64,000 bases of DNA from a virus (IMGVR_UViG_3300031998_002794:714-64713), one strand, 5' to 3'; counted from the first letter of the stretch, positions 20-30,557 are shown. The notes: generated from the letters alone by a model not told the origin. Made by a program: numbers and translations.

Positions 20-640
20 ATGGCAAACAAATACACTAGAATGATTGACGAGATCTTCAAGAAGTGGGATCCTACTGGCACTACCAAGTACATTTATCTT
101 GGCTACTGCCATCAAGGTGATGAAGATGGTGGTTGTGATGAATATGACTACATCTGTGATGATTATTGGGAAATTGAAAATCAGTATCCTTACAAGATGG
201 AAGATGAAATCTGTTTCTTCTATGTTCCTGAAGACCGTCCTAAGTTGACTGATGAAGAAGCAGAAAAGGAAAGAGATGAATACAGAAAGGATTATGGGAA
301 CCTTTGTCATGAGCTTCTCAAATCCTTTGGTAAGGCTCTTGAGGCTGACTATTCAAGCACCAACTGTTATTGGCATCGTCATTACTTCATCACTCGTGAT
401 TACAAGATCATTTCTGATGTCTGCCGCAGTGACGGTGTTGAAGGCGGCGGTCGAGTAGAAGCACACATTGATGCACTCAATGAATTTGATGCAGAGAATG
501 CTGCTGATAAGCAGATACTTGAAAAGATTGAAGACCGCTGCAACAGCCTTTCGTCTCTCTTGAAGAAGATTCAGTATCCGAACAATAAGGCAAAGGCTAT
601 CGCTGAAATTCAGAAGGTCTTAACTGAAGTAGGATCCTAA
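20..640 (+). CDS. hypothetical protein (acidic, Tyr/Cys-rich N-terminus)
   Basis: 206-aa ORF with AAGGAG RBS; stop overlaps the next start (TAATG). Confidence 0.8.
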   Translation: MANKYTRMIDEIFKKWDPTGTTKYIYLGYCHQGDEDGGCDEYDYICDDYWEIENQYPYKMEDEICFFYVPEDRPKLTDEEAEKERDEYRKDYGNLCHELLKSFGKALEADYSSTNCYWHRHYFITRDYKIISDVCRSDGVEGGGRVEAHIDALNEFDAENAADKQILEKIEDRCNSLSSLLKKIQYPNNKAKAIAEIQKVLTEVGS

Positions 641-2394
641 TGGATAAAGAACTTATCAAAAAGCAAGCAACTGCTTGGGCTCAGAAATATCTGGACCCAG
701 CTTTTGCTTTTCGTAAATATCAGCTAGAATCTATTTGCTGTATCATCAGTAATGTCATTGACAATGTTAAGACACAGGTGATGAATGCACCGACAGGCTC
801 TGGCAAGTCGCTTACTGCTATCATTTCAGCCGGCGTCTTGTGGGAGTACTATAAGAAGAAGTCTTACATTCTTGTTTCTGACCTTTCTTTGTTTGAACAG
901 TATGAAAAGGATTTGGCGCGGTATCACCTACCTTGGGGACATCTTAAGGGAAAGGACAACTACATCTGTTCTCGAAATGGCAATGTTGTAAGTTGTGGTG
1001 ACTGCGCTATCAATTTGGTCAGTGCCAGATCTTTGGCTGACCCTGAGTCTGCAGAAAAGGCTGGGTATGACTGTGCTTGTAAATGCGAGTACATTCGTCG
1101 TCGTGCTGAAGCAGTCAATGCTCCAGTGACCGTTATGACATACCAGCTTTATCTCATCCAGATGAACTACGTCAATGAAATGATGACAGAAGAAGAACAG
1201 TCCTTCAAGGAACGTGACTTCTTAATCTGTGATGAAGCGCATAAACTCAATGACATCGTTCAAGGACACTTCGCTCCACGCATTCCAGTTGACGAGCCTG
1301 AGTTCATGAAGACATTGAACGAATATGCGAGAAAGCACGGTCTCGACATCCCCGACTCTAAACAAACAATTCGCATCGCTAATCAGGTTAGAAAGGCTCA
1401 GAATCACGCTCAAATCATTAGCGCTATGCAGAAATACTCTGACCTTCTTTCTGAGTATAACGAAATAAACAATGAGCTCAGAGAAGAAGCAAAGAAGACG
1501 AAAGACAGACGCAAGTTGATGAAGTACTTGTCAGCTGGCAATATGTCAAGAGAATGTAACTGCAAGTTCGGCGATTTTCTTGAACTTATCAAGGAACTTG
1601 GCCCGCAGATTGCAGTAAAGACTGATGGCGAAGATGAGACTATCATAAACTGCACATACGAAGGCGAGATGATTAACAAGTATGTGCATAATCATGCCAA
1701 ATGTGAACTGTTCATGTCCGCTACCTTGGGCAACCTTGCTCTATACCGTGAACTTATCGGTTTGAGGAATGCTCCTAAGGGTCAATACAAAGGACTTGAC
1801 ATTCCGTCTACATTTGACTTCACTAAGTCGCCGATTTTCTATTCTACCAAGAACCCGATGTCCTTTAAAGAAAAGGACCGTTCTATTGGACCTATCTGTT
1901 CACAGATTGAACAGATCTGCGAAATGTTCAAGGGCAGAAGAGGAATCATTCAGACAGGCAATTATGAAAACAGCCAGAAACTGCTTCAGTACTTGCCATC
2001 GTCAGTGAAGAAGCGACTTATCGTCTATTCAACCGCAAAGGAAAAGCAGATTGCCATTGAACGCTTCTTGGCTAATGACGACGCTATCCTTGTTGGTCCG
2101 ACATTGCTTGAAGGTCTTAACTTTGACGGCGATAAATGCAGATTCTCGATATGCATGAAGTTGCCGTATGCTAGCCTTGCTAACAACTTGACTGCAGCGA
2201 AGAAGGATCTTATTGAAAATTGGTATGCAGGTGACTGTGTTGCCAAACTTGAACAAGGCTTTGGACGTGGTGTCCGCTTTGACGGAGACTGGTGCGTCAA
2301 CTACATTCTTGACGGTTGCATCGCTAACCTGATAAGATATTCAGGAGATATGTTCTGTAAGAATACAGTATCTCGACTAAAGCCTATTGCCTAA
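640..2394 (+). CDS. DinG/Rad3-like SF2 helicase with putative Fe-S cluster
   Basis: Walker A APTGSGKS, DEAH box, Cys cluster (C..SCGDC..CACKC), C-terminal EGLNFDGD and QGFGRGVR motifs. Confidence 0.88.
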   Translation: MDKELIKKQATAWAQKYLDPAFAFRKYQLESICCIISNVIDNVKTQVMNAPTGSGKSLTAIISAGVLWEYYKKKSYILVSDLSLFEQYEKDLARYHLPWGHLKGKDNYICSRNGNVVSCGDCAINLVSARSLADPESAEKAGYDCACKCEYIRRRAEAVNAPVTVMTYQLYLIQMNYVNEMMTEEEQSFKERDFLICDEAHKLNDIVQGHFAPRIPVDEPEFMKTLNEYARKHGLDIPDSKQTIRIANQVRKAQNHAQIISAMQKYSDLLSEYNEINNELREEAKKTKDRRKLMKYLSAGNMSRECNCKFGDFLELIKELGPQIAVKTDGEDETIINCTYEGEMINKYVHNHAKCELFMSATLGNLALYRELIGLRNAPKGQYKGLDIPSTFDFTKSPIFYSTKNPMSFKEKDRSIGPICSQIEQICEMFKGRRGIIQTGNYENSQKLLQYLPSSVKKRLIVYSTAKEKQIAIERFLANDDAILVGPTLLEGLNFDGDKCRFSICMKLPYASLANNLTAAKKDLIENWYAGDCVAKLEQGFGRGVRFDGDWCVNYILDGCIANLIRYSGDMFCKNTVSRLKPIA

Positions 2395-6510: not shown

Positions 6511-8994
6511 ATGATAACAAACATTATCAAGCGAGATGGTAGAAAGCGCAAGTTTAACGCTGACAAGATCTCGAGAGCTATAACTGCAGCATTTAATGAT
6601 TCTGGTGAAGCTTATGATTCTGCAGTACTTGATGACTTAGTGGACAAGGTAGTTGATAAACTTAACGAATCTGGAAACAAGACTGCAAAGGTAGAAGACA
6701 TCCAGAACACTATTGAACAGACTATTATGGAAAGCGGATTTACCAAGACCGCTAAGCACTATATCCTTTATCGTGAAGAAAGAAACCGTGTAAGAGATAC
6801 CAAATCATCTATCGTCAAGACAATTAAGGAGATTACTGAATCTGACATCAAGTCCTCAAATATCTTGAGAGACAATGCTAATGAATCAGGCGCTACTCCG
6901 GCTGGTGCATACGGCAAGATTGCTTCCGAGACGAATAAGATGTATAACCTGTTGAACAACATCAACAGAAAGTATGCTCAGGAACACAAAGACGGTTACA
7001 TTCATATTCACGACTTAAACCAATATAACCTTACATTCAACTGCTTGTTCGCTCCTGTCGGCAAACTCTTGAAGTCAGGTTTTGACAGTGGTACTGGTTT
7101 TCTTCGTGCACCGAAGTCAATTCAGACAGCAGCTGCTTTGACAGCAGTAATTTTGCAGTTGCAGTCTAATCAGCAGTATGGCGGTATTGCTGATGACAAC
7201 TTGGACTTTGATTTAGCACCGTTCGTCGACCTTTCTTTCAAGAAGAACTTGAAGAAGGAGATTGACCGTTTCTGCAAGTATGAAGGCAGACCAGACGGCG
7301 AAAAAGATATTCTTTATGCACACATTGAAGAATGCTCAATGAACTGGCCTTTGAATAAGCTCTATCAGTACTTCCCAGAATATGCTGTAGATGCTGCTTA
7401 TGACCAGACTGACGACGACACTCATCAGGCTATGGAAGGTCTTATTGGTAACTTGAACTCATTGCAGTCTCGTTCAGGTAACCAAGTTCCGTTTAGCTCA
7501 TTGAACTTCGGTCTTGATACATCAAACTGCGGACGAATGGTTTCAAAGAACTTGATTCGTTCACAGATGGAAGGTCTCGGCGACGGATTGACCGCTATCT
7601 TCCCAATCTTGATTTTCAAGTTGATGAAAGGCTATACAAAAGATGACCGTGACCCGAACTATGACTTGTATCTTTCGTCTATTGAATGTTTGGCTAGACG
7701 ATTCTATCCGAACTTCGTAAGCGTTGACTCATCATTCAACAAACCGTATGTCAAGTATGAAACACAGGAAATTGACTTGCACGGCGTTGGTAGCGTTGAA
7801 GTAAAGCAGCGCGGTGGTTCAACACTTTATGCCTTGAAAGTTGTTGATACTGACTTCTCTGAATGGATTCAGTATGAATATGATGTTGGTCAAGGTGACT
7901 ATTGGGAAGTAGTTGGAATTAAGGACACCAAGCTTCAGCTCCGTAAGCTCATTCCGAATACAACTGTATCCGCTATGGGTTGCAGAACTCGTGTTCTTGG
8001 CAACATCAACGGTGCAGAGCAAACAACTGGCCGTGGTAACTTTGCCTTCCACACAATTAACCTTCCACGCCTCGCTATTGAAGCACATATCGCTTGCGGT
8101 GACGAGACTGAAAGAATCAACAATTTCTTTGAGCGTCTTGATAACATTTTGAACGACACAAAGGGTTCGTTGCTTGACAGATTCTCTCTTATCTGTAACA
8201 AGACATACGAAAACTTCCCGTTCACTATGCAGCAGGGACTTTACCTTACTTCTGATGACAAGCCACATGAAGTCACCGACAAGATCGCAGAAGTAATGAA
8301 GCAGTCAACATTGTCTATTGGTTATGTCGGCGTTGCTGAAGCAATTACCTTGCTTACTGGCAAGACATACGGCGTTGACCACGAAGTTGACAAGTTGGCT
8401 CTCAACATCGTAAAGCGTATCCGCAAGTTTACTGACGAGTGCCAGAAAGAAACTCATTTCAACTGGTCATGCTTCGCTACTCCTGCTGAAGCAACTGCCG
8501 GTAGATTTGCTTGCATAGACAAGAACTTATTTGAGAAGGAAAAGAAGTTGCAGGACGTTGACCTTTACCGTATCTTCGGCAAAGGCTACTATACAAACTC
8601 CCACATGCTCGACTTCTCTATCAAGACAAGCCTTGCTAACAAGATTGCAGTTGAAGCTCCGTTCCACAAGATCACAAATGCGGGTCACATATTCTACTAC
8701 AAGATGAACGGTGACTTGACAAAGAACTTGCCGGCAGTAAAGGCTGTAATTGATGAAATGTATGAAGGAGATCTTGGTTACTTCACGGTAACTATGGACT
8801 CCGATGACTGCCTTGAATGTGGATATCATGGCATCATCAATGACTGTTGCCCTAAGTGCGGTTGCAAGAATGAAGACAAGTTCGTTCGTGTCCGTCGCAT
8901 CACAGGCTACTTGACAGGTTCACCTCGCAAGACTATCTTCAAGTCTTGGAACGACGCTAAACTTGCAGAGCTCAAGGACAGAGGCAACATCTAA
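6511..8994 (+). CDS. nrdD: anaerobic (class III) ribonucleoside-triphosphate reductase with ATP cone
   Basis: N-terminal IIKRDGR ATP cone, MGCRT catalytic Cys, GRGNFAFHTINLP, CxxC..CxxC Zn site, RRITGYL glycyl-radical motif. Confidence 0.97.
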   Translation: MITNIIKRDGRKRKFNADKISRAITAAFNDSGEAYDSAVLDDLVDKVVDKLNESGNKTAKVEDIQNTIEQTIMESGFTKTAKHYILYREERNRVRDTKSSIVKTIKEITESDIKSSNILRDNANESGATPAGAYGKIASETNKMYNLLNNINRKYAQEHKDGYIHIHDLNQYNLTFNCLFAPVGKLLKSGFDSGTGFLRAPKSIQTAAALTAVILQLQSNQQYGGIADDNLDFDLAPFVDLSFKKNLKKEIDRFCKYEGRPDGEKDILYAHIEECSMNWPLNKLYQYFPEYAVDAAYDQTDDDTHQAMEGLIGNLNSLQSRSGNQVPFSSLNFGLDTSNCGRMVSKNLIRSQMEGLGDGLTAIFPILIFKLMKGYTKDDRDPNYDLYLSSIECLARRFYPNFVSVDSSFNKPYVKYETQEIDLHGVGSVEVKQRGGSTLYALKVVDTDFSEWIQYEYDVGQGDYWEVVGIKDTKLQLRKLIPNTTVSAMGCRTRVLGNINGAEQTTGRGNFAFHTINLPRLAIEAHIACGDETERINNFFERLDNILNDTKGSLLDRFSLICNKTYENFPFTMQQGLYLTSDDKPHEVTDKIAEVMKQSTLSIGYVGVAEAITLLTGKTYGVDHEVDKLALNIVKRIRKFTDECQKETHFNWSCFATPAEATAGRFACIDKNLFEKEKKLQDVDLYRIFGKGYYTNSHMLDFSIKTSLANKIAVEAPFHKITNAGHIFYYKMNGDLTKNLPAVKAVIDEMYEGDLGYFTVTMDSDDCLECGYHGIINDCCPKCGCKNEDKFVRVRRITGYLTGSPRKTIFKSWNDAKLAELKDRGNI

Positions 8995-9515
8995 TGAATT
9001 ACGGACAGATTGACACTGAATCAGTGGTTGACGGAGACGGAATGAGGGTTACCCTCTTCGTTTCCGGCTGTCGTAATCACTGCAAAGGCTGCTTTAATCC
9101 TGCCACTTGGAACTTTGACTTCGGTAAAGAATTTACTCCTATTGAGGAGAATGAAATCTTTGAAGCACTGAAACCAAAGTACATTGACGGATTGTCAGTC
9201 GTTGGTGGCGAGCCCTTTGAAGAAGAAAATCAAAGGGACTTGCTTCCTTTCTTGAAGCGTTTTAAGGAAAAGTATCCTGATAAGACGTTATGGATCTTTA
9301 CAGGCTATGTCTATGATAAAGATCTTGTCCCTCTTGGAAAGAAATACATTCCAGGAGTTACTGATGAAATCGTCAAGATGGTTGATGTACTTGTTGATGG
9401 ACCTTTCATTCAGGAGCAGAGAAGCTTGGAATTGAAGTTCAGAGGCAGTGCTAACCAACGTCTTCTTGACCGTGAAACGATTCATTGGTTGCGTTTTGAT
9501 AAAGATGAGCAATAG
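8994..9515 (+). CDS. nrdG: anaerobic RNR activating enzyme (radical SAM)
   Basis: SVVDGDGMRVTLFVSGCRNHCKGCFN (CxxxCxxC), GGEP, FRGSANQR; coupled to nrdD by TAATG. Confidence 0.96.
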   Translation: MNYGQIDTESVVDGDGMRVTLFVSGCRNHCKGCFNPATWNFDFGKEFTPIEENEIFEALKPKYIDGLSVVGGEPFEEENQRDLLPFLKRFKEKYPDKTLWIFTGYVYDKDLVPLGKKYIPGVTDEIVKMVDVLVDGPFIQEQRSLELKFRGSANQRLLDRETIHWLRFDKDEQ

Positions 9516-9541
9516 TCAAGACGTAGGAAAGAAATTAAATT

Positions 9542-9569
9542 TGGGATGGTGCCAACCGTCCCATTTTTA
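9542..9569 (+). terminator. intrinsic terminator after nrdG
   Basis: TGGGATGGT-gcca-ACCGTCCCA followed by TTTTT. Confidence 0.8.
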
Positions 9570-9630
9570 GTTATATTGCTATTGAACATACTTCATAAAC
9601 TACAACTATAAATAAACAAAAGGAGATTCT

Positions 9631-11436
9631 ATGAAGTTATTAAAATACATCATCATCGCATTGGTGCTGCTTTGCTCAAGCGGATTTGCTGTGGGCCTTG
9701 CAGATGGAGCTGCCAAGTTCGTTGGCAACATCACTACTAACGGTCAGGTCCGTTCGGACTTTGGTCAGTACTGGAACCAAATCACTGCAGAGAATGAATG
9801 TAAGTGGGCGTCTATTGAAGGCAGCCGTGGAAATTATAACTGGCGTGGTTGTGACGCTGCTTATAATTGGGCAAAGCAGAATAACGCTCACTTCAAGTTT
9901 CATGCTCTCGTCTGGGGTTCTCAATATCCAAACTGGTTGAATGGACTTTCAGTTGACGAAACGAAGAAAGCAATTACAGCTTGGTTTGACGCAGTTAAGA
10001 ACCATTATCCTGATTTGGAAATGATTGACGTAGTTAATGAAGCCATCAAGTCAGGTGGTTCATATCACTCTGGATACGGTAACGGAAACAACATTATTGG
10101 TGCTCTCGGCGGAGACAATGGAAATTATGAATTCGTTGTTACTGCCTTTAAGATGGCTCGTGAACGATGGCCAGATGCTATCTTAATTTATAATGACTAT
10201 AATACTGTCCAGTGGCAGAAGAATGAAGGTATTGACCTCATCAATAAGATTAAGAAAGCTGGTGCTCCGGTAGACGCTTACGGACTTCAGGCACACGACA
10301 TGCAGAAGGCTGGTGGCGGTAACGGCGGTACTGGTGGTGGCGGTACCTGTTTGGACATTAATCAGTTGAAGTCCGCTATTGAAGAAATTTGGACAAAGAC
10401 ACAGATGCCAATGTTCATTTCAGAATATGATATTGCTTCTGACGATGACAATGACCAGAAGAACTGTTATTCTCAACAGATCTCATACTTTATGGAAAAT
10501 GAACATATCGCCGGCATTACTTTGTGGGGCTACATCTATGGCTCAACTTGGACTACTAACGGCAACTCCGGCATTATTAAGAATGGACAAGATCGTCCTG
10601 CTATGACATGGCTCAAACAGTACTTGGCAGAAAATAAAGGCGTGAACTCGACTGGTCTTCCAACAGGCGACGGCGTAACTATCGTTGAACCTGAACCTCA
10701 GAAACCTTTCAAGGGTAAGGCATTTGATTTGACTGCTCCTATTGAAGCGGAAGACTTTGACATCCCAGGAAAAGGCGCCGGTAATAATTCATATCTCGTA
10801 TCTGGTGATTGTGATGATGTATGGAACACAACCTATCGTTCTGGCACTTCTGTAAAGATTGGCGATAAGAATGGTGGAATGGTAATTGGATGTAATGCAA
10901 CAGGCAACTACTATCAGTACACAATTAAGGTTCCTGAAGCTGGTAACTACATTGTCTATGCTACCGTAGCCGCTGATGGCGAAGGCGCTATTCTGTTCAA
11001 AGTTGGCGACAAGGCAGTATCTGATACAATGAAGTTCACAGGCGACTCATGGTCTAAATTTGATAAGATTAAGGGACATGCAACCTTCAGCTCTGATGGT
11101 GAACAGATCTTGACCCTTGAAATTGCTCAGGGCTACATTGATGTTGACAACTTCGAGTTTGCAGTAACTGACTGTGCTCCAGGAGATGTAACTTGCGGTG
11201 GTCCATCATACAACTGTGATGCTTATCCTGATGATCCTATGTGCAAGACTGTTGACTTTGACTTCCGTCTCGCAGAACAGAAGGTACTTAAGCTTTGGTC
11301 TGCCTTTGACGCTAATGGGAAGTGGATGGGAAATGTATCTGCCTATACAGCAGATGACGCTATCCGTTTCATGAAGTTGAAACCGGGCCTCTATATCATC
11401 AAAGCAAACGGTAAGTGGCAGACAGTAATTAAGTAA
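9631..11436 (+). CDS. secreted GH10 endo-1,4-beta-xylanase with a CBM6-like module and a Fibrobacter-type C-terminal domain
   Basis: Signal peptide; NQITAENECKW, FHALVWGSQYP, DVVNE (acid/base Glu at 10039), YNDYN, GLQAH, ISEYD (nucleophile Glu at 10423), GITLWG; IEAEDFD-initiated beta-sandwich; C-terminal FDANGK..G.YIIK. Confidence 0.92.
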   Translation: MKLLKYIIIALVLLCSSGFAVGLADGAAKFVGNITTNGQVRSDFGQYWNQITAENECKWASIEGSRGNYNWRGCDAAYNWAKQNNAHFKFHALVWGSQYPNWLNGLSVDETKKAITAWFDAVKNHYPDLEMIDVVNEAIKSGGSYHSGYGNGNNIIGALGGDNGNYEFVVTAFKMARERWPDAILIYNDYNTVQWQKNEGIDLINKIKKAGAPVDAYGLQAHDMQKAGGGNGGTGGGGTCLDINQLKSAIEEIWTKTQMPMFISEYDIASDDDNDQKNCYSQQISYFMENEHIAGITLWGYIYGSTWTTNGNSGIIKNGQDRPAMTWLKQYLAENKGVNSTGLPTGDGVTIVEPEPQKPFKGKAFDLTAPIEAEDFDIPGKGAGNNSYLVSGDCDDVWNTTYRSGTSVKIGDKNGGMVIGCNATGNYYQYTIKVPEAGNYIVYATVAADGEGAILFKVGDKAVSDTMKFTGDSWSKFDKIKGHATFSSDGEQILTLEIAQGYIDVDNFEFAVTDCAPGDVTCGGPSYNCDAYPDDPMCKTVDFDFRLAEQKVLKLWSAFDANGKWMGNVSAYTADDAIRFMKLKPGLYIIKANGKWQTVIK

Positions 11437-11460
11437 ACTGTTTGACATTATTTACAGTAA

Positions 11461-11485
11461 GGGACGCGAAAAGCGTCCCTTTTTT
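11461..11485 (+). terminator. intrinsic terminator
   Basis: GGGACGC-gaaaa-GCGTCCC followed by a T run. Confidence 0.85.
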
Positions 11486-11585
11486 CTATTTGGAAAGTTT
11501 TTGCGGCAGTACCCATTTACAAGTTCTACAAAATTGTTTAAATTTGTTTTCAGATAGAATAAATAACTAAAAGAAAGGAAAACGA

Positions 11586-14500
11586 ATGAAAAAGATAATT
11601 CTATACATCTTGGCTTTTGCGGCCGCCCTCTTCGCAGCTGAGGCAGACGTAAAACCACTTGTCTTCACAGGAGTCGCTGACCAGCAGGCTCAATACGAGT
11701 ACATGCTACAGTATAAGCTCTATGGCTACGAATACTTGAAGATCGGCCAGAATGACACCATTCCTGATAAGTCGGGATGGAACGGTTCTGAAAAAGAAAT
11801 TACAATGAACCATCAAGTAGTTCTTGGTGGACCAATCTTGACGCAAGGCGCTTTTACAGTCGGTAACGGTACTGACTTGAAGACTGGACCTGTCAGAGCG
11901 CAGTCAATGACGATGGGTAATGACAACGGTTCTAACTTTGCGGGCAACTATTGTGTAGCCGATGGAGTTTCAACTCAAATTTCCAACATCATCACTCGAA
12001 GCGAAGGCAAAGTATCTTGTGATTCAGTACCAGCTGCCCCGTCTGGGCTTCAGATGCCTACTCTCGTCTTCCCTGACACAACAGCAATGGAAATTACCGT
12101 GCCTGACCGTGGAAAGGTCTACATAGATATTCCCGACGAGCCAACCGTTGATATGTTTATTAAGTCTATCACAACAGGTACTGAAGACACATTGTATTTC
12201 CGTATGAAGAACAAGGGAACTCTTACTCGTGTATTCGTTGAAGGCTCTATTTCCTTCGGCAACCACACGGTAGTTCAGGTTGTGTATGCCTCACCTGATG
12301 GAGACAGCGTAATTACACAAGACAAGTTCCGTGGCAACCTCATGTTCTATACACAGGAAGACTTTAACATTCGTAACACTGACTATTCCAAGCTGCAAGG
12401 AACTTATATCTCCACAAAGAAGATTAACTTAATTTCAAACATTGACTTTGCTGGACAGTTGCTTGCTAATGAACTTGAGATTGGCGATAACTTCAGTGGT
12501 AAGAATTTCAGATTCGTTAAGTTCAACCCAGATACTCTTGACTTTCCTGAGTTGAATAAGCAAGGCGGCTTGAGAGAAAATGACAGCACAGTCATTATTC
12601 CGATTGAACTTAGTGATACATCAACTATTGAGGTATTCTTTACATACTGCTTTGATATGAAGGACGGAGTCACTGTTGAAGACTTCAACCAACCGCCATT
12701 CATTCCTGTATGTGGAGATACATCAATTACCACAAAGATTCCTATCGGTTCTAAGGCGCCAGTAGATACGATTAAGGTCAATGTAAAGGTAGATACTCTC
12801 GTAGAACCAAATGAATACTTGATTATGCACATTGACAGTATTAGTGGTGCGGTTTTGCCTAACGGCGAGACTTCAGGCGAGTTGAAGATTAAGATCATTG
12901 ATGCTAAGGCTGATACGAACAGAGCTCCGAAGTTCGCTACGGAAGATACTACTTTGTTCATTCCTGAAAACACAAAGCCAGGAATTATTGGAACTATTGC
13001 AGCGACTGACCCGAATGGCGACAAGTTGTCATACACCATTCTAGGAACGGTGCCATTCATAGTAGACAGCGTTGGCAATATAAGTTCTACAAGAGAGTTT
13101 GACTTTGAGAAGGAAAAGCAGTTCACATTCAAGTTGGTCGCTTCCGATGGTAAGTTAACTGACACTTGTAAGGTAACTGTTAAAGTAACTGATGTAAATG
13201 AGCCTGTTCATGCAAAGGACACAACCTTCAGCATAGATGAAGGTAAAGTCGGCGACCTAGGAAAGATAACAGGGGAGGACGAAGATGGAAAGCCTGTTAA
13301 ATTTACTGTCAATGATACTAATGCTTATCGCATCGATAGCACTGGGATACTTACCTTGGTAACTCCGTTTGATTACGAGAAACAGAAGACCGACACTGTG
13401 ACTGTATATGTTACTGATGGAACATTTACAGATTCTGCTATCGTAATCATCAACATTAAGAATGTGAACGGTAACCCTGAACTTCAACCAAATGACAGTT
13501 TGACTGTTCCTGAGAACTGCAAGAGCTGCATCGTTGGTATCATTACTGCAACTGACCCAGATAATGACCCAATTACCTATGATGTAATTCAGCAAGGATT
13601 TACGATTGACAGCAACGGCGTGTTGAAGTTGACTGACCCGCTTGACTTTGAAACAACACCTGAAGTAAAGATCACAATTCTTGCGAAGGATCCGAACGGT
13701 GGTGCAGATACTGCTATCTACGTCGTCAAGGTTACAGACATCAATGAGCCTGTTCATACAAAGGACACTACTTGTTCTGTAAAGGAGAATTACACAGGAA
13801 AGATCTGTAAGGTGACTGGTACTGATGAAGATAAGACAACTCCGACATTCATCATTTCTGACACAACTAATTATTCTATTGACTCAACAGGAACTATCAC
13901 TATCAAGAACCCGATTGACTATGAAAAGAAGACAAAGGACACTGTAAAGGTTATCGTCACTGACGGTGAATTTGCAGATACTGCGACTATCATCATACGA
14001 GTACTTGATGAGCCTGAAACAGTCGAGATTACAAAGTGGGACGATGAAAAGCCTAAGGACACTGTAAAGACTAACGATCCTGACCATCGCTTTGAATGGC
14101 AGGTATGCGAAGGCGACACTTGTAACGGTCACATCGAGACACCTCACATCAGAAAGGACACAACAATTAAGGTATGTAACGACAAGAAGACAGTATGCGA
14201 CTCTATCGTTGTTCTGTTCAATGACGCCCCTCCTGTGGTCACATTGACAAATGCGAAGAGCACAGACGCCTACATTGACTACATCACTATTGAGGAAGTT
14301 AAAGACGATAAGATCTACGTAAACAAGAAAGATAATCAGTTGACTGTGACTGTCAAGGACACTGTCCACAAGACAACGAAGTCCTTCCCAATTGACGTCA
14401 AGCTAGATACAGTCCATGTAAGTTCCAAGAACATCAAGGACTATTCATACTTGATTGACGAAACATTGGCGACATACACATCAATTGGTAATGGTAAGTT

Positions 14501-15767
14501 CGAGAAGAAGGAAGTTATCAAGGACGGCGATGTAGTTATTACATTGACTCAAATCGTTGATAAGCATCACGACAACTTGGACACTGTGCAGACCGTTACT
14601 TACACTGTCAAGCAGGATGGAAAGGAATTGACCATTTCTTATCAGACTGACAACTTGACAGGAACACGAGTTTCTGACTACAAGGTTGCATATAAGATTG
14701 ATTCTTGCACAACAGTTTCTTACTACTTGGACGACAATAAGAAGATCTCCAAGAATAAGGAAGGCAACATCGCTTATACTGTGACATACGACTATACCGA
14801 CGATTTCGGCAACAAGGCATCTTCAAAGGTTGACATTATCTTTGACGATATTCCGCCTAAGGTTCAGATCTTGTCGCCGACTGACTTCGAGAAATTCAAC
14901 TCTAACGCTGTAAACGTAAAGTGGACAGTAAATGGAGAGGTTCAAGATACCTTGACATTGCAGCGCCTCACTAAGGGCGTGAACCACGTCGTCAGACGCT
15001 ACGTTGATAAAGCCGGCAACGTCGCTACTGATACTGTGACTGTGATTATGAATGAAGCAAAGGACATTGACATTAGCCTCGTTCATCCAGTAACAGAAGT
15101 TGACCAAGACAAGGTTGACGAATGGTATAGCGACTCGCATAACAAGTATGATCCTAAGAAGCCTTACGTCATCAAGACAGTAGACCCTAAGAATGACACT
15201 TTGCCTGACGTTATCGGCGTTGGTTTCAAGGTTGACATTGCATTGCCTTCTGTCTCGCCGACTGGTGGTTTGGCAACACTTGATGATATCGTCAAGAACG
15301 GCCAGATTCCTGTTGATGACAAGGGACATATAGTTGGTGCTTCTACTAAGGGCATTCCTGTAGACCAGTATGTTGAAGAACATTGCACAGAAGACTTCAA
15401 GAAGGACTACAAGAAGCATGGTCTCAACATTCCATTGTATGATGTGACCTACAACATGCACTTGTGGATTTACACAACTCAAGCAAACTACGTAAATGAC
15501 TTCGTTGTAGAATATACATTGAACGACGAGGACAAGGCCACATCGGCTGGTACTGTTCAGATGGTCATTGACTGGCTCTCTGACAAGGATGGAAATGTAA
15601 AGGCTAAGAATCACCATTCACTTGGAACTTCTAGCTACATTACATCGCTTTACGCAAAGTCTGTCGCTAAGCATCGCTGCGACTACAATGAACAGAAGAA
15701 AGGCGACAAGACTGTAAAGAAGGATGAAACAATGAAGGTCTTCGGTTACAAGCGTCCGAAGAAATAA
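11586..15767 (+). CDS. secreted cadherin-repeat surface protein (Calx-beta-like, 4 cadherin repeats, Ig-like domain, C-terminal FGYKRP domain)
   Basis: Signal peptide MKKIILYILAFAAALFA; four ~90-aa repeats with PEN, DxD, D(F/Y)E and DxNEP Ca-binding motifs at 12918-14018; Ig-like DIPPKV..YVDKAGN. Confidence 0.85.
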   Translation: MKKIILYILAFAAALFAAEADVKPLVFTGVADQQAQYEYMLQYKLYGYEYLKIGQNDTIPDKSGWNGSEKEITMNHQVVLGGPILTQGAFTVGNGTDLKTGPVRAQSMTMGNDNGSNFAGNYCVADGVSTQISNIITRSEGKVSCDSVPAAPSGLQMPTLVFPDTTAMEITVPDRGKVYIDIPDEPTVDMFIKSITTGTEDTLYFRMKNKGTLTRVFVEGSISFGNHTVVQVVYASPDGDSVITQDKFRGNLMFYTQEDFNIRNTDYSKLQGTYISTKKINLISNIDFAGQLLANELEIGDNFSGKNFRFVKFNPDTLDFPELNKQGGLRENDSTVIIPIELSDTSTIEVFFTYCFDMKDGVTVEDFNQPPFIPVCGDTSITTKIPIGSKAPVDTIKVNVKVDTLVEPNEYLIMHIDSISGAVLPNGETSGELKIKIIDAKADTNRAPKFATEDTTLFIPENTKPGIIGTIAATDPNGDKLSYTILGTVPFIVDSVGNISSTREFDFEKEKQFTFKLVASDGKLTDTCKVTVKVTDVNEPVHAKDTTFSIDEGKVGDLGKITGEDEDGKPVKFTVNDTNAYRIDSTGILTLVTPFDYEKQKTDTVTVYVTDGTFTDSAIVIINIKNVNGNPELQPNDSLTVPENCKSCIVGIITATDPDNDPITYDVIQQGFTIDSNGVLKLTDPLDFETTPEVKITILAKDPNGGADTAIYVVKVTDINEPVHTKDTTCSVKENYTGKICKVTGTDEDKTTPTFIISDTTNYSIDSTGTITIKNPIDYEKKTKDTVKVIVTDGEFADTATIIIRVLDEPETVEITKWDDEKPKDTVKTNDPDHRFEWQVCEGDTCNGHIETPHIRKDTTIKVCNDKKTVCDSIVVLFNDAPPVVTLTNAKSTDAYIDYITIEEVKDDKIYVNKKDNQLTVTVKDTVHKTTKSFPIDVKLDTVHVSSKNIKDYSYLIDETLATYTSIGNGKFEKKEVIKDGDVVITLTQIVDKHHDNLDTVQTVTYTVKQDGKELTISYQTDNLTGTRVSDYKVAYKIDSCTTVSYYLDDNKKISKNKEGNIAYTVTYDYTDDFGNKASSKVDIIFDDIPPKVQILSPTDFEKFNSNAVNVKWTVNGEVQDTLTLQRLTKGVNHVVRRYVDKAGNVATDTVTVIMNEAKDIDISLVHPVTEVDQDKVDEWYSDSHNKYDPKKPYVIKTVDPKNDTLPDVIGVGFKVDIALPSVSPTGGLATLDDIVKNGQIPVDDKGHIVGASTKGIPVDQYVEEHCTEDFKKDYKKHGLNIPLYDVTYNMHLWIYTTQANYVNDFVVEYTLNDEDKATSAGTVQMVIDWLSDKDGNVKAKNHHSLGTSSYITSLYAKSVAKHRCDYNEQKKGDKTVKKDETMKVFGYKRPKK
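12918..14018 (+). repeat. four tandem cadherin-like repeats (protein level)
   Basis: Repeats 2 and 4 both start VH(A/T)KDTT and contain IDS(T)G and D(F/Y)EK; repeats 1 and 3 contain PEN..ATDP. Confidence 0.85.
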
Positions 15768-15790
15768 ACGAAATAACATAAAGACTTCAA

Positions 15791-15818
15791 AGGGTTACCA
15801 GCAATGGTAACCCTTTTT
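15791..15818 (+). terminator. intrinsic terminator
   Basis: AGGGTTACCA-gcaa-TGGTAACCCT followed by TTTT, then immediately TATAAATA. Confidence 0.88.
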
Positions 15819-15833
15819 CTGTATAAATACATT

Positions 15834-16586
15834 ATGGAATTAGTAGAAGCTTTGGAAACATTAAAATCTGCAGACTTGATTGCTGAATCATTGACAGCGA
15901 ACAGACGAAAGTTCTATGTAATGATTGACAAGTTGCTTGAACCTTTCGAGACTGACTCTTACTATTATGAAGAGCCGAACGACGCTATGGGCGAAGACGC
16001 TATCGTTCTTAAGCGTTCAATTCTTAAGAAGATTTCAAAAGAACAATTACAGCACATTGTTGATGTTTGTGGATATCAGATGTCTGTTCATGCCCCGAAG
16101 AACGGCAACGACATTTGGATAACACCAGTAAACGGTGATGAATTGCATGACGATAACTTTGTCTATGAAGACGGTTATCGTATTCTTTTCCATGTTAGCC
16201 CAGTCAAAGATCTTGACAAGAAAGGCATTCGTTGTAAGTCTCGCCCTACTGACAAAGAATTTGACGTTTATCATGGCCGTATTTACTGCATGATGACTGA
16301 CGACGATGTTGACCACGCAAGATCTATGGTCACTGCTGAACACAACAAGCACAAAGCACATCTATACACATATAAGATTAAAGTACCGAAAGGATACGAA
16401 ATCTATCCTGACCCGACTACTCCTGACGGTGTCTATTTGACAAATAACATACCGCCTCAATTCATTGAACGAATTGATGACTTTGACAATGACATTGACC
16501 ACTACATTGAAAATGAAGAAAAGAGACGGCATGACCTCGCTGCACGAGCAGCCAAGATAAATAATTTAGACGGTATTAAGCTCTAA
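15834..16586 (+). CDS. putative internal head protein with a His-type ADP-ribosyltransferase-like domain
   Basis: Leader MELVEALETLKSADLIAE; LFHVS..KGI..GRIY..YKIKVP..PDP..GVY..NIPPQFI pattern. Confidence 0.55.
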   Translation: MELVEALETLKSADLIAESLTANRRKFYVMIDKLLEPFETDSYYYEEPNDAMGEDAIVLKRSILKKISKEQLQHIVDVCGYQMSVHAPKNGNDIWITPVNGDELHDDNFVYEDGYRILFHVSPVKDLDKKGIRCKSRPTDKEFDVYHGRIYCMMTDDDVDHARSMVTAEHNKHKAHLYTYKIKVPKGYEIYPDPTTPDGVYLTNNIPPQFIERIDDFDNDIDHYIENEEKRRHDLAARAAKINNLDGIKL

Positions 16587-16595
16587 AGGAATTTT

Positions 16596-18515
16596 ATGAA
16601 CGAAGAAAACAGCTTTATCAAGTATCTTGTAGATGAAGGCGTTCTCGACGGTGACATTAGCCGTTGGGATATGGCTAAGATTAACAAAGGTATTGCTCCA
16701 AAGTGGGCAAAGAAGGTGACTGAAATCGGACCTCGCCCGAAGCGTCCTGAAACAAGTTCATCACCTTCTGAAGTAGCGATGCGCAGAGTCACTGAACCGA
16801 ACTATCGCCCAGCATACCGTGAAAGCGATATGAAGGCAGACAACGCTGCAGAACAGAAAATGAATCAGCGCATAGCTGATATTCTTCAGAAGAAACTCGA
16901 CTTCCCTATCGCTGCTACAAAAGACGATATTACGATTAACACACCGCATGTAAGATTCTTCGTTTACCCATACGGTTTCGTCTACAAAGTAAAAGCAGTC
17001 TACAGTCCAACCCGTAAAGAAATGAAAGACTGCGAAAGTATTGCTGAAGTTATTCAGTTCATTCAGGCTTGCCTTTCAAAAGACATGCAGATTGAAACTG
17101 CTCTCGGCATTCTTAAGGATAATGGAGCTGAAATCATCAAGGAAGATACTGACGAATATGATGACGCTGACCTCGGTATCAACGTAAACCCTAAAGAATA
17201 CCATAAGCAAAAGGGCTTGATGAAATCCTTGAAAGACCGTATCATCGATGTCTATGAGGAATTCATTCACCGTAAAGAAAAAGAAGCTGAACAGTCCTGG
17301 AAGAAAAATGTTAAGTACCGCGCAGGTACTAACGATGAAGACAGCCTTATGGAAAACTATGAAGATTGCTGGAATGAAAAGTTCCCGCATAAGAACACAA
17401 TGACTCCATTCGAGTTCTATAAGGTAATGATGTCAAACTACGATACCCGTGACTTCATCAAGTCTAAGACTGGTAAGCAAATGGGAAATTACGTCCAGCC
17501 AGATCACGATGACGACGACGATGATGATACAAGCCTTGAAAAACCGAAAAATGGTGACTTTGAATACTGCCAGCGATGCTGTAAGAGTCCAACTAACAAG
17601 AAGAAATTCATTGCAGAAATCAAGAGCTTGTTAAGCAAAGCAAAAACTGCAAAAGAATTCATCAAGCTGGCCGCAAAGCGTGGTGACAACTACTTTGATA
17701 TGTGGGACAAGCTTGATGACAAGATTGATAATCTTGAGGATAAAGACAAACCAGTTCCTAAGGAAATGAAAGAAGAATGTCAATTCTTTAGCATCATGAA
17801 CGATTGCCTTGAATACGAAATCGGTGATGAAGACGAATGGATTGGTATGTGCTGTAAAGAAGCCGGAACAATTCAAAAAGTTAAGAAGGTATTTGAGATC
17901 TTGTTTGCTGAAAACTTCAGTACTAATGCTGCTAAAAAGGCTGCTGCATTTGTTCTAGGTAAGAGCGGCAAGGAAAAGAAAGGAACTGCAAAGAAATCAT
18001 CTGAACAACAAGTACCACCTATCGTCAAGGTGATGTATAAGTCATTCATGGAAAAGATGAAAGTCAAGTACATCTACCGTGCAGTTAACGTAGACACTGA
18101 ATGGGTTGATGACCAGCTTGATGATATGGAAGACAAGTGGAACCAAGAAGATAAAGCCGAGTACTTGCGTAAAAACAAGTATAAGGAAAGAATGGGCTTA
18201 GCAAATGTCAACCTCCACGCAGTTGGTAAATCTTGGGCTTGGGCTGAAGATGAAGCAGATGACGTTTGTGGTGGCGATGGCGATACTTACATCATTGAAG
18301 CAGAAAATGATCCTGCTAACGTTGACTTGCCAATGTCTGCCCTTTGTTTTGCTGAATGGTCTCATTTCAAGAACAACGGTACTGTAGGTGGCGGTGAATG
18401 CGAAGTTCGAGTACTTAACGAACTTGATGTTACTGTAACTGACGTATTCATCGGTAAAGGAAAGAATAAAACTCACCTTAACCGTCGTGAAACATATTAC
18501 AGAGAAGAAAATTAA
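16596..18515 (+). CDS. large putative internal protein with a C-terminal R-S-E ADP-ribosyltransferase-like domain (Alt-like role)
   Basis: YIYRA (Arg at 18078), GKSWAW (Ser at 18231), GECEV (ExE at 18396-18404); internal leader copy at 17085. Confidence 0.6.
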   Translation: MNEENSFIKYLVDEGVLDGDISRWDMAKINKGIAPKWAKKVTEIGPRPKRPETSSSPSEVAMRRVTEPNYRPAYRESDMKADNAAEQKMNQRIADILQKKLDFPIAATKDDITINTPHVRFFVYPYGFVYKVKAVYSPTRKEMKDCESIAEVIQFIQACLSKDMQIETALGILKDNGAEIIKEDTDEYDDADLGINVNPKEYHKQKGLMKSLKDRIIDVYEEFIHRKEKEAEQSWKKNVKYRAGTNDEDSLMENYEDCWNEKFPHKNTMTPFEFYKVMMSNYDTRDFIKSKTGKQMGNYVQPDHDDDDDDDTSLEKPKNGDFEYCQRCCKSPTNKKKFIAEIKSLLSKAKTAKEFIKLAAKRGDNYFDMWDKLDDKIDNLEDKDKPVPKEMKEECQFFSIMNDCLEYEIGDEDEWIGMCCKEAGTIQKVKKVFEILFAENFSTNAAKKAAAFVLGKSGKEKKGTAKKSSEQQVPPIVKVMYKSFMEKMKVKYIYRAVNVDTEWVDDQLDDMEDKWNQEDKAEYLRKNKYKERMGLANVNLHAVGKSWAWAEDEADDVCGGDGDTYIIEAENDPANVDLPMSALCFAEWSHFKNNGTVGGGECEVRVLNELDVTVTDVFIGKGKNKTHLNRRETYYREEN

Positions 18516-18775: not shown

Positions 18776-19672
18776 ATGTTTAAGAGAAATGAAAACCTCA
18801 GAGCTGCCGGTGAGCCAGTCGCTATGACTGCCGAACAGTTGCAAGAATACTTGAAATGTAAAAGAAGTGTTTTCTATTTTGCGAACTACTTCACAATTCG
18901 TGCTGCTGACGGCGACCACCCAATTCAGTTGAGAGAATACCAACAGCGTTTGGTAAAGTCAATTATCACAAAAGATCCTGACAAGAATAACCGAATCATT
19001 ATGATGGGTCGTCAGTCAGGTAAGACAACTATCGCTACCCTCTATTTGACGTGGTATGCGCTGTTCCACCGTTCAAAGACTATCGCTATTCTGGCTAACA
19101 AGGCTGAACAGGCTGATGAAATTATGCTTCGTATTCAGGAAGCATACATGGCCTTGCCTTTGTGGTTGCAGCAAGGAATCGTGAAGTGGAATGCTGGTGA
19201 AATGATTTTGGAGAACAAATGCAGAATGTTCTCCGCAGCATCTTCATCTTCGTCTATTCGTGGTAAGACCGTTGACATTGAACTCGTGGACGAGTTTGCT
19301 CACTTGGACAACAACGTTGCTGACTCATTCATGATGTCAGTTTTCCCTACCCAAGCTTCTAGACCTGACTCAATGCTTTTGCTTATCAGTACTCCTAACG
19401 GCATGAACCACTTCTACGACATTTGGCAAAAGGCTAAGTCTGGTCGTAATACATTCATTCCTTGTAAAGTCCAGTGGTATGAAATTGAAGGTCGTGACGA
19501 AAAGTTCAAAGAACGAGTTATTCGTGACAACGGTATTAAGTATTTCATGCAGGAATTTGCTTGCTTGACTCCAGACCAAAAGATTACGCTTAAAGACGAT
19601 AACGGCAATATCAGAACATTAACGATTGGCGAAGCGTATCAGTGGATGCGAGATTGCGGTGAGCTGGAATAA
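18776..19672 (+). CDS. terL: terminase large subunit N-terminal ATPase half fused to a split-intein N fragment
   Basis: LREYQ, GRQSGKTT (Walker A), SIRGK, LVDEFAH (Walker B), ISTPNGMNHFY; extein ends YFMQEFA; no nuclease domain. Confidence 0.95.
   Translation: MFKRNENLRAAGEPVAMTAEQLQEYLKCKRSVFYFANYFTIRAADGDHPIQLREYQQRLVKSIITKDPDKNNRIIMMGRQSGKTTIATLYLTWYALFHRSKTIAILANKAEQADEIMLRIQEAYMALPLWLQQGIVKWNAGEMILENKCRMFSAASSSSSIRGKTVDIELVDEFAHLDNNVADSFMMSVFPTQASRPDSMLLLISTPNGMNHFYDIWQKAKSGRNTFIPCKVQWYEIEGRDEKFKERVIRDNGIKYFMQEFACLTPDQKITLKDDNGNIRTLTIGEAYQWMRDCGELE
19562..19669 (+). other. atypical short split-intein N fragment (36 aa)
   Basis: CLTPDQKITLKDDNGNIRTLTIGEAYQWMRDCGELE begins with Cys1 at the QEF(A/E)|CEF site and matches the intein block A pattern. 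Confidence 0.85.
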
Positions 19673-30173: not shown

Positions 30174-30557
30174 ATGGAACAAATAGCAACCTTGATTTTG
30201 CAGAGCGGTAACATAACAGCTATTATCTGTTTTGTTATATGCTATGTAGTCATCTGGGCACAGCGAAACAAGACAAAGAAAACTCGTGACGCTGCAACAG
30301 AACTCATAGAACAGACTATGAAGACTATGAAGGATCGTCAAGATGCATTTGACGAAACCGTCGAGTACCTTAAAGAACAGGTTACAACATTAAAGACGGA
30401 GAAGGAGCTTATGCAGAAAGATATCCAATTCCTTAAGACTGAACAGTCTGACGTTAAATCAGACGTTAAGGAAATTAAGAATACTTTACAGACTATGGCT
30501 CTTGCGCTTGAACGTCTCGCAACTGCCGCAGACATCAACAATAAGAAGGACAAATAA
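30174..30557 (+). CDS. single-TM plus coiled-coil protein, holin-like candidate
   Basis: Hydrophobic N-terminus (ITAIICFVICYVVIW) followed by heptad repeats. Confidence 0.45.
   Translation: MEQIATLILQSGNITAIICFVICYVVIWAQRNKTKKTRDAATELIEQTMKTMKDRQDAFDETVEYLKEQVTTLKTEKELMQKDIQFLKTEQSDVKSDVKEIKNTLQTMALALERLATAADINNKKDK

Follow-up and report, generated by a model that had tools for sequence, protein, structure and literature searches.

The 64,000-nt stretch of viral DNA studied here (IMGVR_UViG_3300031998_002794:714-64713, referred to below as the window), which is a 64.7-kb IMG/VR virus record less its initial 713 bases, carries a gene for a predicted secreted xylanase and, next to it, a gene for a large cadherin-repeat protein that we call the adhesin. 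It appears probable, though by no means firmly so, that the record comes from a phage of rumen Fibrobacter, about 420 kb in size and built on a T4-type core, and that these two genes, both host-derived and both coding for exported proteins, would re-equip the surface of the infected cell. A first-pass annotation made from the sequence had pointed out two adjacent signal-peptide genes 3' of nrdG and ahead of the terminase, and two intact open reading frames (ORFs) were found at that place (Table 1).

The phage is one of a family of jumbo myoviruses whose genomes are about 420 kb long and whose core is of the T4 type. Profile searches recognized T4-type core proteins in the window, namely Gp23 (E 1e-67), Portal_T4 (E 1e-61) and Terminase_6N (E 1.3e-18), and a T4-type prohead protease (Peptidase_S77) lies upstream of the locus, as read on an identical ENA contig. 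Downstream of the large terminase gene (TerL) come the genes for a T4-type portal, the tail tube, a Gp23-type capsid protein and a baseplate wedge protein, and nearly all genes of the window are on the plus strand. The family size is given because two relatives with direct terminal repeats, rated complete, measure 424,163 and 415,750 bp; both genes are present in them, and their major capsid proteins are 58-59% identical to that of the window. CheckV estimated the completeness of the IMG/VR record at 17%. The earlier label of a T4-like phage therefore holds for the core and not for the ordinary T4 size. Base composition differs widely inside the family, with about 34% GC in the loci of the two complete relatives (G001 and G002) compared with 42% in the window.

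The predicted xylanase is intact and belongs to glycoside hydrolase family 10 (endo-1,4-beta-xylanase), with a carbohydrate-binding CBM6 domain behind the catalytic one. An alignment of 17 phage and Fibrobacter sequences showed DVVNEA to be invariant and ISEYDI (ITEYDI in L025) to occur throughout; we take VVNE to hold the acid/base glutamate of GH10 and SEYD (TEYD in one host ortholog) to hold the nucleophile. The C-terminal domain aligns with the host domain, yet is shorter and more diverged. Against TIGR04183, the model for type A sorting by the type IX secretion system (T9SS), the tail scored 17.2 and 19 bits with a cut-off of 23, and the ortholog of G004 only just reached that cut-off. 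The xylanases of G001 and G003 (L041, L043) are without the last strands of this domain and end in LHTRVILI(N/K)K, so that in these lineages sorting of the T9SS type may have been lost or may not be required.

All of the full-length matches to the xylanase in GTDB, searched with one genome per species, were from Fibrobacter or Fibrobacteraceae (45-69% identity). IMG/VR contained 14 xylanase loci at 65-100% identity, and the INPHARED reference phages gave only two weak partial matches (29% identity). The phylogeny against Fibrobacter orthologues suggested in the first-pass annotation placed ten phage xylanases in one clade (88/100) inside the rumen Fibrobacter clade (100/100) of a maximum-likelihood tree, which fits a single capture from a rumen Fibrobacter. 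The GC content at third codon positions (GC3) is 0.42 in the phage copy, like that of its neighbours, compared with 0.60-0.71 in five of the six host orthologs examined, and falls to 0.26-0.35 in the 34%-GC relatives, tracking the composition of each genome. The xylanase gene is an old phage resident, because its GC3 follows phage composition. The ratio of non-synonymous to synonymous substitutions (dN/dS), another check proposed at the outset, was 0.06-0.16 between phage xylanase copies, where dS is near or past saturation, and 0.13 between phage adhesin copies; both genes are under purifying selection. As for other fibre enzymes, five related phage records, including two complete genomes, contained neither a GH5 cellulase nor a second CBM6 protein.

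The adhesin was recognized by its cadherin repeats (PF00028, E 2e-26, 92.7 bits against a cut-off of 28.8), two of the four being singly above the cut-off, and cadherins in the PDB matched it at E values down to 3e-13. The AF2 model of its N-terminal part (pLDDT 81, pTM 0.72) has a beta-helix head that VIA aligned with the ice-binding proteins 3wp9 and 7bwx (Z 16.1, 187-197 residues, root-mean-square deviation (rmsd) 2.8-3.3 A) and with tapirin C-domains (Z 10-12). The head is modelled as a DUF3494/ice-binding beta-helix at the fold level only, and no Pfam sequence family matched it at E 0.01 or better. The tapirins of Caldicellulosiruptor bind cellulose; the beta-helix fold that they share with the head does not show the ligand. 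For the C-terminal 564 residues, Foldseek and VIA gave just generic Ig/FN3 sandwiches (Z below 8) and no anchor or barrel fold, while a search of the ESM Atlas with residues 1040-1393 gave only Big_13-type Ig domains with scores below 0.9. A PorU-like fold for this C-terminus was rejected, since at an rmsd of 12 A the alignment carries no meaning. No Fibrobacter-specific domain model of NCBIfam matched the adhesin, and neither it nor the xylanase matched a PHROG family. The modelled head, a calcium-binding stalk and a C-terminal sorting-like end together support the label of adhesin.

Relatives of the adhesin numbered 483, and the best 120 of them were 61-80% identical to it, nearly all being metagenome proteins, many on contigs of 250-424 kb. 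Each of five Fibrobacter genomes encodes several homologs of 1500-3200 amino acids (aa), clustered in tandem on one contig, which are 31-39% identical to the phage protein across head, repeats and tail and share the ending FGY(K/S/R)RP; a single cadherin gene was found per phage record. The 1393-aa phage protein is, as judged from these alignments, a shortened homolog of the giant cadherin-domain envelope proteins of Fibrobacter.

The first-pass annotation had taken the two genes for a single inserted 'fibre module', and this part of it was not borne out. In G001 and G002 the adhesin gene lies beside nrdD and nrdG, as in the window, and the xylanase gene is more than 100 kb away from it. The order in G108, whose capsid protein is 93% identical to that of the window, is nrdD, adhesin, two small ORFs and TerL, with no xylanase between nrdD and the adhesin gene nor anywhere in its 185 kb. 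The adhesin gene adjoins the nrd genes in all relatives checked that cover the region; it is a resident gene and part of the conserved core of this family. The xylanase gene, on the other hand, has the marks of a moron or auxiliary metabolic gene (AMG), a self-contained cassette that is accessory and mobile: its own promoter-like motif and terminator together with absence from the site in relatives, a combination that the adhesin gene does not have. Since the xylanase gene sits elsewhere or is absent while the adhesin gene stays by the nrd genes, the two do not form an obligate module. In the lineage of the window the xylanase gene seems to have inserted itself 3' of nrdG and 5' of the adhesin gene, and the adjacency of the two genes is an accident of insertion and not a sign of a coupled system.

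Both genes are furnished with signals of the phage type. The first-pass annotation had placed late motifs at 9607 and 11558, intrinsic terminators at 11461 and 15791 and a ribosome-binding site before each gene, and all of these were recovered, the motifs being enriched and strand-specific, the terminators forming stable hairpins with T-runs, and the binding sites reading AAGGAG (xylanase) and AAGGA (adhesin). A further terminator (9542-9563) isolates the xylanase cassette on its upstream side. TATAAATA occurs 10 times in the window (2.1 expected) and AATAAATA 14 times (3.4 expected), in each case on the plus strand only, and their common core ATAAATA has 29 copies on the plus strand and one on the minus. 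Although 96% of the window is coding, 25 of the 29 copies are intergenic, and they end mostly 4-37 nt 5' of the start codon of genes that include TerL, major capsid and tail genes; TATAAATA itself also stands upstream of TerL (18752) and of other structural genes. ATAAATA agrees with the late-promoter consensus of T4, and because this consensus is matched in a phage with a T4-type core, a phage promoter is a reasonable reading of a motif enriched far beyond chance.

The signals of the two genes were conserved to different degrees among lineages. In each of the four lineages examined, ATAAATA is located 20-30 nt 5' of the adhesin gene. It precedes the xylanase gene only in the lineage of the window and in one relative; a terminator and a TGTATAAT-type element are found upstream in the other lineages instead. 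A strong AAGGAG precedes the xylanase gene in every lineage, and a terminator-like hairpin follows it in nearly all. The sigma-70-like site at 11516-11544, taken alone, is a match no better than chance; TTGACA-N17-TATATT occurs at the equivalent place upstream of the adhesin gene in G002 (L056). Tandem sigma-70-like and ATAAATA promoters of the adhesin gene would allow both early and late expression. Elsewhere in the window, four genes (motifs at 15823, 19669, 31864 and 34718) have their ATG just 4 nt after ATAAATA, and if transcription starts a few bases past the motif as in T4, their messages would be leaderless or nearly so.

Both proteins begin with a basic stretch, followed by a hydrophobic core and a cleavage region of small residues. 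An N-terminal hydrophobic core was seen in three of the 63 main ORFs of the window and the layout of a signal peptide only in the xylanase and the adhesin; the third ORF is that of a 127-aa membrane protein with its core from residue 16, and none of the structural genes of the window codes for a signal-peptide-type N-terminus. Between phage lineages the signal peptides are conserved, as is the start of the mature protein. The signal peptides reported in the first-pass annotation were thus found on both proteins, which have kept host-type C-terminal sorting regions as well, and export to the surface of the infected cell is the best supported of the candidate mechanisms. The Fibrobacter host proposed there is likewise supported, the phage being judged to infect rumen Fibrobacter from the origin of both genes.

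Under this proposal, phage-specific promoters would drive the xylanase and adhesin genes during infection, the Sec pathway would export both proteins, and the sorting machinery of the host would carry them to the outer membrane or into vesicles, the xylanase by a T9SS-type route. The exported pair would then add to the attachment to fibre and to the removal of hemicellulose, by which cellulose is exposed, at a time when the phage is taking over host gene expression. Several observations weigh against it. The host link comes solely from the phylogeny of the genes, and no CRISPR spacer match was found between 20 kb of the window and 101 Fibrobacter genomes. (Four DNA matches to Fibrobacter genomes, of 29-33 nt with 88-93% identity and E 0.002-0.009, lie in no repeat array and were put down to chance.) With TIGR04183 scores below the cut-off and shortened tails in some relatives, T9SS sorting is not secured and may not be needed. 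Because the upstream signals of the xylanase gene differ between lineages, its timing would not be conserved, and with a late-type promoter little time would remain for any metabolic benefit. F. succinogenes is not known to grow on xylan products, and any gain from the xylanase must therefore be indirect, through exposure of cellulose or loosening of the plant-wall matrix.

Both genes are of host type and IMG/VR contigs can hold host DNA, so the locus could have been host DNA mis-joined into a phage contig or, failing that, a decaying passenger without a role. The first-pass annotation had itself named a chimera, or near-identity to a host chromosomal locus with its flanks, as fatal to its proposal. 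However, an independent 92-kb ENA contig encodes an identical adhesin, its gene having the same neighbours on either side, and an IMG/VR contig of another assembly matches at 99-100% over nrdG, xylanase and adhesin. In the diverged relatives L040 and L051 the genes likewise run nrdD, xylanase, adhesin, TerL, with identities to the window of 75-76% for nrdD, 74% for TerL, 80-83% for the xylanase and 74-80% for the adhesin (aligner-dependent). The contig is not a chimera, because independent contigs and diverged relatives have the same gene order and the junctions of the locus are present in them. The Fibrobacter loci with the nearest host xylanases have only that gene in common with the window and none of its flanks, the best host identity being 69%. 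With the base composition of the phage, intact frames and dN/dS of about 0.1 besides, an artefact or a decaying passenger is very improbable.

Attachment to the virion must also be weighed, in which both proteins, or the adhesin alone, would stick virions to fibre or host cells in the manner of Hoc-type adherence, with the xylanase as a virion-borne depolymerase. Ig-like and cadherin-like domains are frequent on phage surfaces, and the core adhesin gene has the ATAAATA motif of TerL, major capsid and tail genes, adjoins the packaging and structural block and gave weak fold matches to Hoc and tailspikes. T4 Hoc is, like the adhesin, a string of beta-sandwich domains in a T4-type phage behind a late-type motif, but it has no signal peptide and binds the capsid, whereas the adhesin copies a host envelope protein end to end, including the sorting-like FGYKRP. 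The conserved, cleavable-looking signal peptides would remove both proteins from the cytoplasm, where tailed phages are assembled. Neither falls in a PHROG structural family, the adhesin has no domain in common with other proteins of the window, and a viral fold library searched with its N-terminal domain gave nothing at E 0.001 or better, all of which makes a place on the virion quite unlikely. Alternatively, the adhesin may replace or mask the giant cadherin adhesins of the host, and so exclude superinfection, should these serve as the receptor, or keep progeny from adhering to debris after lysis. As a shortened paralog within a host surface family, it has the same targeting ends and a diverged head (31-35% identity), it was kept in every relative checked that covers the region, and the candidate sigma-70-like promoters besides ATAAATA would permit early expression; exported phage lipoproteins that block receptors are known, for example Llp of T5. 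Yet the signal that is conserved is the late-type motif, nothing ties the adhesin to adsorption and the xylanase is left unexplained, and we regard masking as unlikely.

A further reading of the exported adhesin can be offered as a doubtful conjecture. Fibrobacter phages of about 420 kb may keep an exported core adhesin to control the position or adhesion of the infected cell, to fibre or to neighbours, before lysis, so that progeny would be freed among dense hosts, and the optional xylanase would open the plant-wall matrix. This would amount to a remodelling of adhesion and not to metabolic help.

Proteins resembling both in layout have been described in F. succinogenes S85. The GH10-CBM6-BTD xylanases FSU_2292-2294 of this strain are envelope proteins, and their basic terminal domain (BTD) has been proposed as a T9SS signal (PMC6851124). 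By published description, this Xyn10 cluster (GH10-CBM6-CBMnc-Fpm-1/BTD) is like the phage xylanase in domain order, length (about 590-620 aa), signal peptide and basic C-terminal domain. The phage protein differs in being phage-encoded, with phage composition and a phage motif, and is 69% identical or less to the host genes. A 318-kDa cadherin-domain outer-membrane protein of S85 was detected only on cellulose (PMC4619616), and the likening of FSU_2932 (318 kDa) to the phage adhesin is by published description alone. Fibrobacter cadherin-domain envelope proteins resemble the phage adhesin in signal peptide, head, cadherin repeats and FGYKRP ending, whereas the phage protein has about half their length or less, is encoded once per genome and has ATAAATA upstream.

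Glycoside hydrolase AMGs (GH16 and GH114) have been reported in the rumen virome (PMC10465536). Like the phage xylanase, such AMGs or morons of rumen and soil are host-derived carbohydrate-active enzymes (CAZymes) amid phage genes, with their own promoter and terminator. The xylanase differs from those reported in being a full multidomain secreted GH10 protein that has kept its secretion signals and is under selection in many family members. A preprint warns that viral CAZyme annotations mostly denote core viral functions (bioRxiv 10.1101/2024.12.20.629349); the present xylanase is orthologous to fibre-active host xylanases and not to lysins. The known kind is the moron or AMG, and the conserved exported adhesin is the less expected part. 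Literature searches covering Fibrobacter, rumen, phage, xylanase and cadherin yielded no account of the phage family, its xylanase or its adhesin, nor any paper describing Fibrobacter phages; one paper assigns a jumbo phage family of the pig gut to Fibrobacterota and does not mention xylanase and adhesin genes.

The features of the locus are collected in Table 1. Neither of the two ORFs downstream of the adhesin gene matched a PHROG family. The earlier of the two possible starts of the first, 15804, falls inside the terminator hairpin, and the ATG at 15834, just 3' of a TATAAATA copy (15822-15829), is the likelier one and gives a 250-aa protein. The short TerL was also called, at the same 298 aa, on the independent ENA contig and aligns over its full length in relatives, so the split of this gene appears to be real and conserved. 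The 127-aa protein (30174-30557) has one strong transmembrane segment and may be a holin or another membrane protein. In G108 (L086 14890-18651) nrdD seems to be interrupted, a 516-aa N-terminal part being followed by ORFs of 261 and 476 aa and then by the adhesin gene; an intron, or an insertion of the homing-endonuclease or intein type, may account for this. The 40 kb of G108 examined gave no match to nrdG.

Table 1. Features of the xylanase-adhesin locus and its neighbours (nucleotide positions in the window; residues for protein domains).
Feature	Position	Strand	Remarks
nrdD	6511-8994
nrdG	8994-9515
Intrinsic terminator after nrdG	9542-9563	+	9-bp stem then T-run; -15.6 kcal/mol, z -4.4
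TATAAATA motif	9607-9614	+	T4-late-type, promoter-like; 16 nt 5' of xylanase ATG
Ribosome-binding site, xylanase gene	9620-9625	+	AAGGAG
Xylanase gene	9631-11436	+	601 aa; GH10 and CBM6
Xylanase signal peptide	residues 1 to ~21		predicted
GH10 domain	residues 26-328		PF00331, E 1.4e-55, 189 bits (cut-off 22.1); profile positions 18-308 of 311
CBM6 domain	residues 402-510		PF03422, E 1e-9, 39.2 bits (cut-off 28.9); 42.6 bits in genome search
Xylanase Cys-rich linker, then basic C-terminal domain	residues ~540-601 (basic domain)		resembles Fibrobacter BTD/Fpm-1
Intrinsic terminator, xylanase cassette	11459-11481	+	perfect 9-bp stem then T-run; -16.6 kcal/mol, z -5.1
Sigma-70-like candidate promoter, adhesin gene	11516-11544	+	TTTACA, 17-nt spacer, TAAATT; 9/12 consensus
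AATAAATA motif	11558-11565	+	promoter-like; 20 nt 5' of adhesin ATG
Ribosome-binding site, adhesin gene	11575-11579	+	AAGGA
Adhesin gene	11586-15767	+	1393 aa; cadherin repeats
Adhesin signal peptide	residues 1 to ~20		predicted
Beta-helix head	residues ~36-316		DUF3494/ice-binding type; AF2 model and VIA
Calx-beta-like domain	residues ~314-442		VIA Z 9.5
Four cadherin repeats	residues ~458-806		Pfam
Ig/FN3-like beta-sandwich domains of adhesin	after cadherin repeats
Adhesin terminal domain	ending coded at 15741-15758	+	ends FGYKRP
Intrinsic terminator, adhesin gene	15789-15816	+	12-bp stem then T-run; -18.2 kcal/mol, z -5.9
ORF without family match	15804 or 15834-16586
ORF without family match	16596-18515
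TerL, large terminase	18776-19672	+	298 aa; N-terminal ATPase half only, T4-type

Fibrobacter is a principal cellulose degrader of the rumen, and the locus points to a widespread family of T4-core Fibrobacter phages of about 420 kb, with homologs on many metagenome contigs, several of them of 250-424 kb. Among tailed phages, a conserved signal-peptide adhesin is unusual as a core gene. The locus is also a clean case of a phage with complete secreted proteins for fibre degradation and for binding to fibre or cells, their secretion signals kept. Should the two proteins be exported, infection would have a direct effect on fibre colonisation and on the removal of hemicellulose, which would be relevant to fibre digestion in the rumen.

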